Notes: a model not told the origin generated them from the sequence alone. A stretch of DNA of 64,000 bases from Escherichia coli (GCF_050920415.1 NZ_CP169309.1), one strand, 5' to 3'. Numbered from the stretch's first letter, positions 6,378-43,044 are shown. Program-made: numbers and translations.

Positions 6378-6539
6378 TAGTACCGTCAGCAGGAATGTTG
6401 TCCAGGGCGAAAAGCTTCTTCCTCGTTTCGCCCTGCCTTTCTTAAAAATTCCGTAATGCAAAGTCTGAAGCCATCGCCTGTTGAGCAATGAAAGAGATCT
6501 GATTGTAAGAGAGTAAATACTCAACTATCATAGAGACGA

Positions 6540-6707
6540 AAATAAGAACACATGTTCTCATCTTCCAGGATGCAGCAGACTGAAGAAATTCAGACATCCC
6601 GCAACCTGCGATTATCGCAAGGTCAAGGCAAAGTCCGGTAATGGCGTTCTGAATACCAGAGATAATTCTCTGGCGAAACCCACCTTAAGGTGGGTTTTGT
6701 TATTTTG
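6540..6707 (+). ncRNA. Candidate small RNA in the thiH-yjaZ intergenic region (possibly SroH-like)
   Basis: About 400 nt ORF-free spacer; plus-strand hairpin AACCCACC-TTAA-GGTGGGTT followed by a T-rich tract at 6678-6707; recalled from memory that an sRNA is annotated at this locus in K-12; 5' end not determinable from sequence. Confidence 0.3.
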
Positions 6708-16025: not shown

Positions 16026-16060
16026 GCGCAAAAAGGCTGGTGACTAAAAAGTCACCAGCC
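16026..16060 (-). terminator. rplL-rpoB intergenic attenuator (partial terminator)
   Basis: Minus strand: GGCTGGTGACTTTTTAGTCACCAGCC followed by TTTTTGCG, about 40 nt after the rplL stop; matches the known L7/L12-beta attenuator position. Confidence 0.7.
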
Positions 16061-16099
16061 ATCAGCCTGATTTCTCAGGCTGCAACCGGAAGGGTTGGC

Positions 16100-22950: not shown

Positions 22951-22978
22951 TTTAAAGGGGAGCTAATGCTCCCCTTTC

Positions 22979-28218: not shown

Positions 28219-28412
28219 TCACAACCCGAAAATGTTTCTTTCGATTCATCATCGTGTTGCGAAAATTTGAGAGACTCACGAACAACTTTCGTTGTTCAGT
28301 GTTTCAATTTTCAGCTTGATCCAGATTTTTAAAGAGCAAATATCTTAAACATGACTCGTAAGTCATCTTTAACGATATCAAGGTCGGCGACTTTCACTCA
28401 CAAACCAGCAAG

Positions 28413-36068: not shown

Positions 36069-37469
36069 ATGCCACATTCCTACGATTACGATGCCATAGT
36101 AATAGGTTCCGGCCCCGGCGGCGAAGGCGCTGCAATGGGCCTGGTTAAGCAAGGTGCGCGCGTCGCAGTTATCGAGCGTTATCAAAATGTTGGCGGCGGT
36201 TGCACCCACTGGGGCACCATCCCGTCGAAAGCTCTCCGTCACGCCGTCAGCCGCATTATAGAATTCAATCAAAACCCACTTTACAGCGACCATTCGCGAC
36301 TGCTCCGCTCTTCTTTTGCCGATATCCTTAACCATGCCGATAACGTGATTAATCAACAAACGCGCATGCGTCAGGGATTTTACGAACGTAATCACTGTGA
36401 AATATTGCAGGGGAACGCTCGCTTTGTTGACGAGCATACGTTGGCGCTGGATTGCCCGGACGGCAGCGTCGAAACACTAACCGCTGAAAAATTTGTTATT
36501 GCCTGTGGTTCTCGCCCTTATCATCCAACAGATGTTGATTTCACCCATCCACGCATTTACGACAGCGACTCAATTCTTAGCATGCACCACGAACCGCGCC
36601 ATGTACTTATCTATGGTGCTGGAGTGATCGGCTGTGAATATGCGTCGATCTTCCGCGGTATGGATGTAAAAGTGGATCTGATCAACACCCGCGATCGTCT
36701 GCTGGCGTTTCTCGATCAGGAGATGTCAGACTCTCTCTCCTATCACTTCTGGAACAGTGGCGTAGTGATTCGTCACAACGAAGAGTACGAAAAGATCGAA
36801 GGCTGTGACGACGGTGTGATTATGCATCTGAAGTCGGGCAAAAAGCTGAAAGCCGACTGTCTTCTCTATGCCAACGGTCGTACCGGTAATACCGATTCGC
36901 TGGCGTTACAGAACATTGGGCTGGAAACTGACAGTCGTGGACAGCTGAAGGTCAACAGCATGTATCAGACCGCACAGCCGCACGTTTACGCGGTGGGCGA
37001 CGTGATTGGTTATCCGAGCCTGGCGTCGGCAGCCTATGACCAGGGGCGCATTGCCGCGCAGGCGCTGGTGAAAGGTGAAGCCACCGCACATCTGATTGAA
37101 GATATCCCTACCGGCATTTACACCATTCCGGAAATCAGCTCTGTAGGCAAAACCGAACAGCAGCTGACCGCGATGAAAGTGCCGTATGAAGTGGGCCGCG
37201 CCCAGTTTAAACATCTGGCACGTGCACAAATCGTTGGCATGAACGTGGGTACGCTGAAAATTTTGTTCCATCGGGAAACAAAAGAGATTCTGGGCATTCA
37301 CTGCTTTGGCGAACGCGCTGCCGAGATTATCCATATCGGGCAGGCGATAATGGAACAGAAAGGTGGCGGCAACACTATTGAGTACTTCGTCAACACCACC
37401 TTTAACTACCCGACGATGGCGGAAGCCTATCGGGTAGCCGCGTTAAACGGTTTAAACCGCCTGTTTTAA
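36069..37469 (+). CDS. sthA: Soluble pyridine nucleotide transhydrogenase SthA (UdhA), 466 aa
   Basis: ORF track; FAD-binding GSGPGG motif. Confidence 0.95.
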
Positions 37470-38369
37470 CACTTTATCGAAATGGCCATCCATTCTTGCG
37501 CGGATGGCCTCTGCCAGCTGCTCATAGCGGCTGCGCAGCGGTGAGCCCGGACGATAAACCAGGCCAATAGTGCGGCGTGGTTCCGGCTTAATACACGGCA
37601 AATAAACAACCCCATCGCGTTTGCGCTCCGGCGGCACAGCCAGTGCAGGCAGTAAAGTGATCCCGCTACCTGCCGCCACCATGTTGCGCAGAGTTTCCAG
37701 GCTGGTCGCGCGGAAGTGTGTATCTTCATCCGCCCCGGCTTCAAAGCAGAAACCCATTGCCTGATCGCGCAAACAGTGACCATCTTCCAGCATCAGCAGT
37801 TTTTCCCCTGCCAGATCGGCCATCGGTACGCATTCGCGGTTCGCCCACGGGTGATCTTCATAGATAGCCAGCAACATTGGCTCATCAAACAACGGCACTT
37901 CAATGAATGCTTCGCTCTCTTTCACCAGCGCGAGGATCACGCAATCGAGTTTGCCGCTGTCCAGTTGCGCCAGTAACTGGTGGGTCTGTGCTTCATGCAG
38001 ATACATTTCCAGCTTTGGAAAGGTCTGGTGCAGCATCGGAATAATATGCGGTAACAGGTAAGGCCCAACCGTGGGAATCAAACCAATATGCAGCGGCCCG
38101 GACATTGTCTCGCCCTGCTGGCTTGCCATCTCTTTAAGGACTTTCACCTCACGCAGCACGGTACGCGCCTGATCCACCAGCAGCATTCCCGCCTGGGTGA
38201 ACAACACTTTACGGCTGGTCCGCTCCAGCAACATCACGCCCAGCTCATCTTCCAGCTTACGAATTTGCCCGCTAAGCGTCGGCTGGCTAACGTGGCAGGA
38301 ATCTGCCGCACGCCGAAAATGACGGTGTTCAGCCAATGCCACCAGGTACTCAAGATCACGAATATTCAT
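37452..38369 (-). CDS. oxyR: LysR-family hydrogen peroxide sensor/regulator OxyR, 305 aa
   Basis: ORF track 37452..38399; canonical start [18 protein letters not shown] at 38369; redox cysteines present (HCLRDQ and CIKPEP contexts); 18-nt convergent overlap with sthA. Confidence 0.95.
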
Positions 38370-38464
38370 TATCCATCCTCCATCGCCACGATAGTTCATG
38401 GCGATAGGTAGAATAGCAATGAACGATTATCCCTATCAAGCATTCTGACTGATAATTGCTCACA
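38370..38464. promoter_or_regulatory. Divergent oxyR/oxyS promoter region with OxyR operator
   Basis: 95 nt between the oxyR start and the oxyS 5' end; repeated ATAG-type elements; assignment from the known oxyR-oxyS architecture. Confidence 0.6.
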
Positions 38465-38578
38465 GAAACGGAGCGGCACCTCTTTTAACCCTTGAAGTCA
38501 CTGCCCGTTTCGAGAGTTTCTCAACTCGAATAACTAAAGCCAACGTGAACTTTTGCGGATCTCCAGGATCCGCTTTTT
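38465..38578 (+). ncRNA. oxyS: OxyS small regulatory RNA
   Basis: Sequence GAAACGGAGCGGCACCTCTTTTAACCCTTGAAGTCACTGCCCGTTTCGAGAGTTTCTCAACTCGAATAACTAAAGCCAACGTGAACTTTTGCGGATCTCCAGGATCCGCTTTTTTTT recognised, including the terminal hairpin and U-tract. Confidence 0.88.
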
Positions 38579-38620
38579 TTTATTCTACAGGCCCACAGCA
38601 AGAGAGCCTGATAGTAACAG

Positions 38621-39904
38621 TTACTCAATCCGATCTTTGACAATAAAGAAGTAACACAGCGCCCCGGTGAACGTCACACAGGCCGCGATAACCAGCGCCA
38701 GATTAAACGAGTGCGTGGTATCCACTACCCAACCGGTTACGATCGGAGCAAAGGAAGCAAAAACAAAACTGCCAAAGTTTTGAATCCCGGCGATGGAAGC
38801 CACTTTTGTTTCTGACACCATCACCTGCACCAGTCCCCATGCAGATGTTCCCGCGAAATGCACGCAGAACAGCGCCATTGAGATAAACGCTACAGCCTGG
38901 GCTGGCGAGGAGGATTGCACGACCAGCAACGTGCCTAATGCCGACATCATCAAACCGCAAACAATAGCCGTTTTACGCGTCTTCGCCAGGTCGTAGCCTT
39001 TTTTCGCCAGCCGATCGACAACAATACCGTTAACCCACATCCCGACCGCCGCCGCGAGGAAAGGAATCGCCGCCACCCAACCGGTTTTCGCCAGACTGAA
39101 GCCTTGCTCGGCTTGTAAATAACCGGGTAACCACGCGATGTAGAGCCAACCGGTATAATTGACGCCAGAGAAACCTAAAATCATCCCCCAGGTTGTCCGA
39201 TGCTTAAACAGCGCCAGCCACTCGCTAAATTGTAATTGTGGACGCGGTTTAACCGGCGCGGAGAGATAGGTCCGTTCTTCGTCGGTCAGGACAAACTGCG
39301 CCCGGTTGCGATACCACGCGTACCAACAGATCCCAACCAGAATCCCCGCCACGCCGATGATGACGAACATTGCCCGCCAGCCCCATGCCAGCTGCATCAA
39401 TACAAGAGCAGGAGGCGCAATAGCCTGACCGATAACGGTAGATGAGTTAAAAATCCCCAGCGCCGTGCCGCGTTCTTTTTGCGCATACCAGTCGGTGATC
39501 GACTTTACTCCCGCAGGCATAAATGGCGCTTCGCCAATACCCAGACCGATACGCATTAAAATAAAGTGGCTAAAAGAATTAACCATTCCTGTTAATGCCT
39601 GCATTAATGACCAGAATATTAAGCCTGCGCCTAAAACTATTCGTGGGCCAAAGCGGTCTAGCAAAATACCGGAAGGGAGTTGTGAAAAACCATAAGACAG
39701 AGAAAATGCAGAAAGCAAAACGCCAAATTCTGTCGCCGATAATCCTAACTCGCCACGAATCGCTTCGCCTGCCACGCTCAATGACGAACGGTCGAGGAAA
39801 TTAACGATCCCCGCCATAAATAATAAAACCAGCGTTACTGTCTGAATACGACGAATCCGTTGCGGTTTATTACCCGCAACACTGGTTGACACATCAACGT
39901 CCAT
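38621..39904 (-). CDS. MFS transporter, anion:cation symporter (ACS) family; putative sugar-acid (hexonate/hexuronate-type) permease, 427 aa
   Basis: ORF track; 12-TM hydrophobicity pattern; N-terminal NFLDR motif and overall similarity to DgoT/ExuT/GudP-type permeases; not at this locus in K-12 as I recall it. Confidence 0.8.
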   Translation of the reverse strand: MDVDVSTSVAGNKPQRIRRIQTVTLVLLFMAGIVNFLDRSSLSVAGEAIRGELGLSATEFGVLLSAFSLSYGFSQLPSGILLDRFGPRIVLGAGLIFWSLMQALTGMVNSFSHFILMRIGLGIGEAPFMPAGVKSITDWYAQKERGTALGIFNSSTVIGQAIAPPALVLMQLAWGWRAMFVIIGVAGILVGICWYAWYRNRAQFVLTDEERTYLSAPVKPRPQLQFSEWLALFKHRTTWGMILGFSGVNYTGWLYIAWLPGYLQAEQGFSLAKTGWVAAIPFLAAAVGMWVNGIVVDRLAKKGYDLAKTRKTAIVCGLMMSALGTLLVVQSSSPAQAVAFISMALFCVHFAGTSAWGLVQVMVSETKVASIAGIQNFGSFVFASFAPIVTGWVVDTTHSFNLALVIAACVTFTGALCYFFIVKDRIE

Positions 39905-39970: not shown

Positions 39971-41185
39971 TTACCAGTTCCACAATGTGCCATCTTCCAG
40001 TCGTGCGACGGGGAGATACGCCGGGTCATACGGATATTTCGCCGCCAGTTTCTCATCGAAAGAAATACCCAGCCCCGGTTCATCGCCTGGGTGCATATAA
40101 CCTTCATCGAAGCGCCAGCTGTGCGGGAAGACTTCAAGCATTTGTTCGGAATAGCCCATGTACTCCTGAACGCCAAAGTTTGGCACCCAGAGGTCAAAAT
40201 GCAGCGCCGCCGCATGACAAACAGGCGATAAATCTGAAGGGCCATGCGAACCGGTACGTACCTGATAAAGCGATGCAAAATCGGCAATCCGTCGCATCCC
40301 GGTAATGCCGCCTGCATGGGTAATCGTCGTGCGAATATAGTCAATCAGCTGCTCTTCGATTAACTGCTTGCAGTCCCAGATACTGTTAAACACTTCACCG
40401 ACCGCAATCGGCGTCACAGTATGCTGGCGAATCAGACGAAAACATTCCTGGTTCTCGGCAGGCGTCGGATCTTCCATCCAGAACAGGCGGTAATCCTCAA
40501 TGCTCTTCCCAAAGCGCGCCGCTTCGATAGGAGTCAGGCGATGGTGCATGTCATGCAACAGATGTTCGTTAAAACCGAACTTATTACGCACCGCTTCAAA
40601 TAACTTCGGTGTAAAATCGAGATACTTTTCTGAAGACCACAACTGCTCTTCCGGCCACAGGCCTTTGGTTGCCGGTTCATACGCCAGTCCTTTGCCCTTC
40701 GCCAGGCCATAAGTGGTTTGCATACCCGGTACACCGCACTGCACACGAATCGCCTTAAAGCCCATCAGCTGGTGCTTTGCATAGTCTTCAAGGACTTCAT
40801 CAATCGTGCGCCCGGTGGTGTGGCAATAAACCATCACGCCTTCACGAGAAGCCCCACCAAGCAGTTGATACAATGGCATATTTGCCGCTTTGGCTTTGAT
40901 ATCCCACAACGCCATATCAATGGCAGAAATGGCCGACATCGTGACGGGGCCACGTCGCCAGTAAGCACCTTTATAAAAGAATTGCCAGATATCTTCGATA
41001 CGGCTGGCATCGCGGCCAATTAATTGTGGACAAAGATGATCTTTCAGATAAGAAGCGACCGACAATTCGCGACCATTTAATGTGGCATCTCCCAATCCAC
41101 AAAGTCCGCTTGCAGTGGTTATTTTAAGCGTAACGAAATTACGTCTTGGGCAAGTAACAAAAACATCTGCAGCAATAATTTTCAT
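39971..41185 (-). CDS. Enolase-superfamily dehydratase, D-mannonate dehydratase (ManD)/RspA subgroup, 404 aa
   Basis: ORF track 39971..41245; start moved to ATG at 41185-41183 ([13 protein letters not shown]), preceded by RBS CAGGAG; hallmark RspA/ManD blocks [54 protein letters not shown]. Confidence 0.85.
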
Positions 41186-41670
41186 TATTGCAATCTCCTG
41201 TGTTGTAAATAGATGCTTCAAACTTAATTTTACGCCTACTACCATACAAGAGAGAAAGAGCGATTATTCAACCGTGATCACATTAAAAATAAAAATTTCC
41301 GCCGAGGAGAAAAAACACCCTCAAAAACCACCTGAATAATTAACCATTATCGTTAAAACAACACGTTAAATAATCACATAACAAACTCCATTAATCATTA
41401 AATATGAGCGCAGCAATAGAAATGAATTATATTCAATTAATTAAAATATGTATTGATTGATGTATTGAAAATATGATTTTCATGGGGAGAGTGAAGGTAA
41501 AGAAGACGCAAGAATAAAAAGGAATATGACAAATAATAGTTCTGGTTGGGCGTTAAATTTAAGGTCACCAGAATGCTGACAAATTTCTGCCTGAGGCAGT
41601 CCGCCTACGTAGTGTCGCTACTTTATAGGCGTGGTAAGCTCCCCATTTTCAGGGGAGCAATATAAACCAA
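41186..41670 (-). promoter_or_regulatory. AT-rich upstream region of the accessory operon (putative promoter)
   Basis: About 485 nt ORF-free, locally very AT-rich (e.g. 41340-41560), between the argH stop and the dehydratase start; no promoter elements assigned. Confidence 0.4.
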
Positions 41671-43044
41671 TTACCCCAACCGCGCCTGCGCAAAAGCAAT
41701 CGCCTGCGCCACCTGCTGCGGGGAGACGCCGCCTTTTGCCGCACGCTTGTCGAGGCACGATTGCAGCGACAGAATCGGATAGACATCTTCGCCAATCACC
41801 TCGCTGAATTTCTGCAACTCACTGAGCGGCAGTTCTTCCAGCGGTTTGCCCTGACGAATGGCTTCCACCACCGCTTCACCAACAATATGGTGCGCCTCGC
41901 GGAACGGCACACCTTTCGCCACCAGGTAATCCGCCAGTTCAGTGGCGTTCGCATACCCCTGCTGCGCCGCTTCCTGGCAACGTGGGCGTTTCACCTGAAT
42001 CCCGTCCAGCACCAGCGCCGCCATATGCAGGCAGTCCAGCCAGGTATCGAGCGCATCGAACAGACCTTCTTTGTCTTCCTGCATATCTTTGTTATAGGCC
42101 AACGGCAGACCTTTCAGCGTCATCATCATGCCGGTCAACGCGCCCTGAACACGACCGCATTTACCGCGAATCAACTCCAGCGCATCCGGGTTTTTCTTCT
42201 GCGGCATTAATGATGAACCGGAAGTAACACGATCAGAAAGCTCCACAAAACCCGCTTCGCCGGTGTTAAAGAAAATCAGATCTTCGGCAAAACGCGACAA
42301 ATGCACCATACCGATAGCGGCGGCAGATAGCAGTTCCAGCACGTGGTCGCGGTCAGAAACGCTGTCGAGACTGTTACGGGTCGCCGAGGCAAAGCCCAGC
42401 CAGCCTGCTAACTGTTCACGGTCGATTTCATAGGCCGTTCCCGCCAGGGCGCCACAGCCTAGCGGGCTGACATCCAGACGCTTAAGCGCATCCTGCAAAC
42501 GGCTTTCATCACGCGCCAGCATCTCAACATAGGCCAGGCACCAGTGCGCAAACGTCACCGGCTGGGCGCGTTGCAGGTGAGTGTAACCAGGCATTACCGC
42601 GTCCTGATTATTCTGCGCGGTTTCCACCAGCGCCGATTGTAACTGTCGGTTAGCCGTCAGCAACTCGCTAACGGTATCCTTGCACCACAGTTTCAGGTCA
42701 GTCGCTACCTGATCATTACGGCTACGCCCGGTATGCAGTTTTTTGCCTAACTGGCCCACTTTGTCGATCAGTTTGCCTTCCACCCAGCTATGGATATCTT
42801 CGGCGTCGCTTTCAAGAATTTGTTGTGGCCTGGCGCGAACATCTTCCAGCAGCACATTGAGCGCCTCTTCCAGTTGCACCTGTTCTTCTGCGGTTAACAC
42901 GCCTACCGTTACCAGCGCTTTGGACCAGGCCACAGAGCCAACAATATCCTGCTCCGCCAGACGGTAATCAAAGCGCAGTGAGTCGTTGAATTGTTTAAAC
43001 CGTTGATCTGCTGCCTGGGTAAAACGCCCGCCCCAAAGTGCCAT
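41671..43044 (-). CDS. argH: Argininosuccinate lyase ArgH, 457 aa
   Basis: ORF track; recognisable sequence. Confidence 0.96.

Follow-up and report, generated by a model that had tools for sequence, protein, structure and literature searches.

The junction between argH and oxyS in Escherichia coli raises the question of whether transcripts of an accessory operon stop before they reach the gene for the oxidative-stress regulator OxyR. In the 64,000-nt stretch of E. coli DNA analyzed here (hereafter, the window), two genes, manD and an MFS transporter gene, lie between argH and oxyS (Table 1). The original prediction was that this operon faces oxyS head-on and is codirectional with oxyR, with no evident terminator between them, so that its transcripts could continue as antisense RNA across oxyS and into oxyR. 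The coordinates and strands indeed bear out the head-on and codirectional arrangement.

Table 1. Features of the argH–oxyR locus in the window, with the basis of each assignment.
Feature	Coordinates	Strand	Basis
sthA	36069-37469	+	NCBIfam score above curated cutoff
oxyR coding sequence, 305 aa	37452..38369	-	NCBIfam NF008361, 632.8 bits; RefSeq annotation of near-identical strain
oxyR–oxyS divergent promoter/operator region	38370..38464		identical to K-12
oxyS sRNA gene with its own intrinsic terminator	38465..38581	+	Rfam RF00035; terminator scan
Spacer of 39 nt, MFS stop to oxyS T tract	38582..38620	-	alignments, terminator scans
MFS transporter gene, 427 aa, intact in window	38621..39904	-	TIGR00893, 275 bits
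manD, enolase-superfamily D-mannonate dehydratase, rspA paralogue	39971..41185	-	NF043051
argH–manD spacer, AT-rich, 485 nt	41186..41670	-	composition, terminator and motif scans
argH, last gene of argCBH	41671..43044	-	NF008964/TIGR00838

OxyR, SthA, ArgH, and ManD all score above the curated NCBIfam cutoffs, and the gene identities agree with the RefSeq annotation of a strain that differs by one base in 3.5 kb. The Rfam match to OxyS (38465–38574, plus strand; 139.5 bits against a gathering score of 75) covers model positions 1–110, i.e., the window holds a full-length member of the RF00035 family, divergent from oxyR. Beyond argH, argB and then argC follow, all on the minus strand. The oxyR–oxyS region contains two promoter-like sites on the minus strand according to the scan (38455->38426 and 38439->38410), as well as what is taken here to be the classical OxyR operator (38390–38440), a position reportedly given by Toledano et al. 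in 1994. A hairpin of -30.6 kcal/mol (38365–38423) is predicted to enclose the oxyR Shine-Dalgarno sequence and AUG in transcripts that exceed the proximal oxyR mRNA in length. Module-positive strains fall into two haplotypes of the oxyR leader/operator, CCATG...GGCGATGG and CCGCG...GGCAATGG, which also differ by TATTCT versus TATGCT; the window carries the K-12 haplotype. At the far end of oxyR, the sthA and oxyR coding sequences converge with an 18-nt overlap (37452–37469), and neither gene has a positive-scoring intrinsic terminator. The other Rfam matches mentioned here are ordinary for E. coli: sroH (6538–6698), the 'P26' element in the rplL–rpoB spacer (16034–16095), and StyR-44 in the rrn operon (28226–28334).

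Direct reading and the terminator scan place the stem of the oxyS terminator at 38555–38573, followed by a T8 tract at 38574–38581. The stop codon of the MFS gene (38621–38623) is separated by 39 nt from the end of the T tract and by 47 nt from the stem, so the distance of 43 nt given previously between stop and hairpin was approximately right. On the minus strand the order becomes A8-GCGGATCCTGGAGATCCGC-AAAAGTTC. The reversed hairpin, GCGGAUCCUGGAGAUCCGC, does form in the minus-strand fold as a stable GC-rich stem-loop of -11 kcal/mol, and its tail reads AAAAGUUC, in which, as had been predicted, there is no U tract. On the plus strand the arrangement is CTTTT-hairpin-TTTTTTTT; the 5′ flank is T-rich rather than A-rich, and the element does not have the makeup of a bidirectional intrinsic terminator.

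To quantify these features, a d'Aubenton-Carafa-style discriminant (d-score) was used, which combines the hairpin energy per nucleotide with a weighted U-tract score and was calibrated on two controls, the oxyS terminator (+43) and the K-12 argH terminator (+29). The best minus-strand d-score is -29 in 38680->38300 and -16.5 over the entire 41720->38300 region, from the argH stop to the oxyR start; the U tract 3′ of the stem and the positive score expected of an intrinsic terminator are both missing for the reversed oxyS hairpin. A pattern/consensus scan likewise found no terminator-like site on the minus strand from the MFS stop (38621) to oxyR. Two independent scans between argH and oxyR are thus negative, in line with the earlier claim that no other minus-strand intrinsic terminator is visible. 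In the 39-nt spacer (38582–38620), these scans show no terminator, and the sole hairpin there is a weak one of 5 bp. A cryptic terminator among the antisense OxyS hairpins was also considered. The best candidate, 38507–38469 followed by UUUCUGUG, has a d-score of -36.5 and was rejected because its mirror-image hairpin on the plus strand lies inside full-length OxyS (Rfam positions 1–110). By geometry and by the absence of terminator features, the module and oxyS are convergent transcription units with no barrier between them.

How unusual such an operon end is can be judged from the window itself. When the d-score was applied to all annotated gene ends in the first 50 kb, positive values were obtained for thiH, rpoC, rplL, nusG, tufB, coaA, birA, rrnB, oxyS, and ppc. 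About 8 of the 18 operon-terminal genes (~40%) have none, and the ends without a positive score are those of rsd, yjaZ, murI, trmA, yijD, sthA/oxyR, argE, argH, and the MFS gene. With this proportion of operon ends devoid of a predicted intrinsic terminator, absence alone is ordinary. The interest of the junction lies in its downstream neighbors and in the sequence that formerly stood there, not in the missing terminator by itself.

That former sequence can be recognized by comparison with K-12. Window and K-12 are identical across oxyR, the promoter region, and oxyS as far as the final T of the T8 tract (38581); beyond this position homology is lost entirely, to resume at the argH stop codon. 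The 39-nt spacer next to the T tract therefore derives from the module. The 61-nt argH–oxyS spacer of K-12-type genomes is thus exactly replaced by the manD–MFS module, terminator included; in K-12, this spacer holds an argH-strand terminator, GAGCCTGGCTTATCGCCGGGCTT followed by TTTTAT, which is the +29 control mentioned above. When the genome collection was scanned for the conserved OxyS linker, representatives of seven species were obtained. Those of E. coli, Citrobacter sedlakii, and Klebsiella spallanzanii, which lack the module, keep an argH-strand terminator beside the oxyS terminator, with d-scores of +29, +22, and +12.7, respectively. Its stem and loop sequences differ between genera, and the hairpin is still predicted. 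Since the argH terminator is kept across these module-free representatives, the back-to-back terminator pair is the ancestral state, and the module has displaced a cross-genus conserved argH terminator that insulates oxyS and oxyR in K-12-type genomes. E. albertii (L007, 1850–1890) has no module, yet its argH-strand terminator is degenerate, with a T6 tract kept, a poor stem, and a score of -18.6; this species may leak toward oxyS too. According to PMC8825220, the 3′ end of an ancestral peroxidase gene gave rise to oxyS, and families differ in what the oxyR–argH interval contains. This family-to-family variation fits a recombination-prone interval.

The module allele is frequent: of 5426 complete E. 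coli genomes, 1868 (~34%) carry it, among them strains listed as O103:H2 and ordinary clinical isolates, and 3506 have the K-12-type junction. Across the 1868 genomes the module junction is 96–100% identical with zero indels, and none of them carries a terminator-bearing variant of it. Outside E. coli, E. whittamii, Escherichia sp. E1V33, and Escherichia sp. MOD1-EC7003 share the module, its site, and its junction, and the module occurs with an essentially identical junction in a derivative of EPEC E2348/69 and four other E. coli strains; no terminator-bearing variant was seen in the junctions aligned or extracted from these five diverse strains and three other Escherichia species. The d-score scan covered the window, E. 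whittamii, E1V33, and MOD1-EC7003, none of which gives a positive score (the best of the three outside the window is -21.9), and the other module-positive E. coli strains were compared by junction sequence only. The 39-nt spacer differs at 1–2 of its 39 positions across E. coli, E. whittamii, and E1V33 and has strongly diverged in MOD1-EC7003; for E. whittamii and E1V33, 2/39 differences compare with a synonymous divergence of ~16%, so that the picture of constraint on the spacer is mixed.

Both module genes are under purifying selection; they retain 98.5–98.6% amino acid identity at about 94% nucleotide identity across Escherichia species. Relative to E. whittamii, the MFS gene shows 6 amino acid differences and 67 synonymous third-position differences (98.6% amino acid and 93.8% nucleotide identity). 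Such selection implies that the genes must be expressed under some condition. In strain MFDS1022581, otherwise identical, an A in place of G at window position 39643 creates a premature stop, and the MFS gene is annotated there as a pseudogene, unlike the intact copy of the window. The module was originally described as an acquired island. Its presence/absence polymorphism at a fixed site does agree with that description; recent mobile acquisition does not hold, given that the module is shared with E. whittamii and others and that neither mobility genes nor repeats accompany it. Annotation and profile search found two metabolic genes only, and no direct repeats were found at the module boundaries, so a classical mobile island was rejected. 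The composition of the module genes is not atypical either (coding GC 45–56%, like the flanks), AT-richness being confined to the spacer. The module is an old accessory presence/absence allele rather than a recently acquired mobile island.

The two genes look like a minimal uptake-plus-dehydration route that would convert a hexonate to 2-keto-3-deoxygluconate. ManD matches the ManD equivalog model NF043051 with 726 bits (cutoff 550) and, over its full length, is ~90% identical (by eye) to the RspA-type structures PDB 4il2 and 4e4f; manD shares 81% nucleotide identity with rspA. The MFS protein belongs to the D-galactonate/acid-sugar transporter subfamily, although its 275 bits against TIGR00893 are below the curated cutoff, hence it is subfamily-like only.

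Transcription could reach the junction from argCBH or from a promoter of the module itself. In the module allele, argH has no scoring intrinsic terminator; a hairpin just past its stop, GCTCCCCTGAAAATGGGGAGC, is followed by no U tract. The argH–manD spacer, with 30–38% GC, contains a C-rich, G-poor stretch at 41506–41429 (17 C and 2 G in 78 nt, C/G 8.5), which looks like a Rho loading site. Owing to this rut-like stretch, read-through from argCBH is likely stopped by Rho there, and it is unlikely to matter for the module. EPEC and E. whittamii have a REP-like element in this region (41429–41670), part of which has been lost from the window. The proximal part of the spacer is well conserved and presumably harbors a promoter for the module. 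A perfectly conserved 8-bp palindrome, GTGATCAC, is located at 41274–41281, and long invariant blocks common to E. coli and E. whittamii extend upstream of manD from the palindrome down to 41186; the palindrome and blocks are candidate operator/promoter sequences for some regulator. Scans of 41186–41670 detected no sigma-70-like promoter, no CRP site (≤2 mismatches), and no UxuR/ExuR-like palindrome (≤3 mismatches), and matches to the latter two across the window are at chance level. The annotation shows no regulator gene in the module. With no sigma-70, CRP, or UxuR/ExuR-like site found, module expression may be low.

A polymerase that leaves the MFS gene enters an untranslated gap of 251 nt, from the MFS stop to the oxyR start, composed of antisense OxyS and the oxyR leader. 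The gap RNA contains 48 C and 65 G, and in 78-nt windows its median C/G ratio is 0.71 and the highest 1.27, a value that ranks only at the 76th percentile of such windows across the 64 kb. It folds with -95.6 kcal/mol, compared with -71.6 ± 4.7 for shuffles (z = -5.1), as expected for the complement of a structured sRNA together with the oxyR leader. A rut site comprises ~80 nt of C-rich, G-poor, weakly structured RNA, and no such segment is present. Being G-rich and strongly folded, the gap would be a poor Rho substrate and, as judged from composition and predicted folding, seems to be the opposite of a Rho utilization site.

The following course of events can be proposed. In the ancestral layout, argH's own hairpin and U tract, placed back-to-back with the oxyS terminator, would stop argCBH transcription before oxyS and oxyR. 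The present allele, in which a two-gene hexonate module replaces the 61-nt spacer, would create an un-insulated operon boundary. On leaving the MFS gene, polymerase would meet just the reversed oxyS terminator (A8-hairpin-AAAAG), which should be unable to terminate intrinsically, and would then cross the G-rich structured gap, with its poor prospects for Rho loading, to the oxyR ribosome-binding site. A fraction of the transcripts would thus carry the entire complement of OxyS in a long 3′ UTR and extend onward into oxyR. Exonucleases may trim part of this RNA back to the reversed hairpin, leaving an apparent 3′ end near 38555; a minus-strand 3′ end mapped there would not alone disprove read-through. 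Given the arrangement of the genes, an ancestral terminator that has been lost, an intervening sequence devoid of terminator-like and rut-like elements, and an allele that is conserved and frequent, all observed here, read-through into anti-oxyS and oxyR is somewhat probable whenever the module is transcribed.

Several considerations weigh against read-through. In E. coli, most transcription that is untranslated or antisense is suppressed by Rho, which together with NusG can act at suboptimal sites; OxyR occupies the oxyR–oxyS operator in both redox states and, when bound there, could block an elongating polymerase. It is hence possible, though not probable, that transcription past the MFS stop is ended before oxyR by Rho with NusG or by an OxyR roadblock and that the RNA is then trimmed. 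The MFS mRNA would end near 38555, where the reversed hairpin (-11 kcal/mol) would suit as an exonuclease stop, and oxyR would be unaffected. All 251 nt of the gap are untranslated, which suits such a stop, and a 78-nt window around 38478–38388 reaches a C/G of 1.1–1.27, but most of the gap has more G than C and is strongly structured, as described above, and the oxyR start codon is close, leaving a short distance for Rho to load and catch up.

The module might also be essentially silent in ordinary conditions, either cryptic or silenced by H-NS, in which case hardly any polymerase would arrive at the junction; this account, which is not exclusive of the others, is rather doubtful. The GC content of the upstream spacer is typical of H-NS targets, the missing promoter, CRP, and UxuR/ExuR-like sites and the lack of a regulator gene point the same way, and a nonsense allele of the MFS gene exists in one near-identical strain. 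Close ManD paralogues of the RspA type are reportedly low-efficiency enzymes in cryptic pathways (said to stem from Wichelecki et al. in 2014). The strong purifying selection on both genes and the conserved proximal promoter region nevertheless argue for regular use of the module under some condition. An improbable explanation is a head-on collision, in which oxyS is strongly induced by peroxide and the converging polymerases stop each other within 38470–38620, so that interference is confined to oxidative stress and each unit is independent of the other at other times. The convergent geometry offers about 150 nt of potential overlap, and collision models have been invoked for oxyR P2 versus oxyS in K-12 (PMC7967276). 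Yet the argument is one of geometry only; at 110 nt the oxyS unit is short, its terminator is strong (d-score +43), and both promoters would have to be highly active simultaneously.

Returning to read-through, its predicted consequences are an anti-OxyS RNA, interference with the oxyS promoter, and oxyR mRNA made independently of the autoregulated oxyR promoter. Any physiological effect is likely to be small and conditional, and a physiologically meaningful coupling to OxyR/OxyS is unlikely. In the strongest form of such a coupling, induction of the hexonate module would lead to titration or destruction of OxyS by a full-length antisense RNA and would supply oxyR mRNA that escapes autorepression, and sugar-acid catabolism would set oxidative-stress readiness; this is very improbable. 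If it were true, oxidative-stress readiness would differ between module-positive and module-negative strains. The persistence of the allele across species without the gain of a terminator fits harmless as well as useful read-through. Collectively, the original reading of the junction is plausible and appears somewhat strengthened, and any regulatory coupling to the oxidative-stress response is speculative.

Should read-through occur, oxyS and oxyR would be insulated from neighboring transcription differently in K-12 and in the ~34% of E. coli with the module allele, EPEC E2348/69 among them. This would be a caveat on transferring K-12 OxyS/OxyR biology to other strains, and the two natural alleles would best serve as a ready natural experiment on the purpose of terminators between convergent units and on terminator insulation of the OxyR/OxyS node. 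Should it not occur, the locus would exemplify factor-dependent or roadblock termination at a sequence that looks unfavorable for Rho. Literature searches gave nothing on the manD–MFS module, on the junction it forms with oxyS, or on antisense RNA derived from it. Many bacterial operons show read-through or antisense overlap at their ends, and the phenomenon proposed here, arising at an un-insulated operon end, is of this well-known kind and incremental whether or not read-through takes place.

Several known systems resemble the junction in part. Like the bidirectional terminator between coaA and birA, it has a single GC-rich hairpin between two convergent units. In a bidirectional terminator, however, the stem is followed by a U tract whichever strand is read, and the coaA/birA hairpin (22957–22974) scores as a terminator on each (+33 and +9), whereas the oxyS hairpin has T8 on one side and AAAAG on the minus strand. 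With respect to the module itself, the ManD equivalog match and the ~90% identity to RspA-type structures relate it to rspAB and the hexonate modules of the ManD subgroup. The partner in rspAB is the RspB dehydrogenase; here, manD is paired with an MFS transporter and is located at the argH–oxyS locus.

A precedent for overlapping transcription in this direction exists at the locus itself: in a re-analysis of K-12 start sites, the oxyR P2 start was placed 41 bp inside oxyS, and its use coincides with less OxyS (PMC7967276). In both that case of cis-antisense and the present one, a transcript in the oxyR direction overlaps oxyS, by 41 nt for P2. The antisense RNA predicted here from the sequence would cover OxyS over its full 110 nt, and its source would be an accessory operon instead of an oxyR promoter. 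The closest comparison is the K-12-type junction, at which the locus is the same, oxyR and oxyS are identical, the sequence matches up to the T8 tract, and the upstream operon is also head-on to oxyS and codirectional with oxyR. In K-12, Citrobacter, and Klebsiella, an argH-strand hairpin and U tract in the 61-nt spacer form back-to-back convergent terminators with oxyS, whereas the window has a 3.1-kb manD–MFS module in the place of this spacer and no equivalent terminator after the MFS gene.
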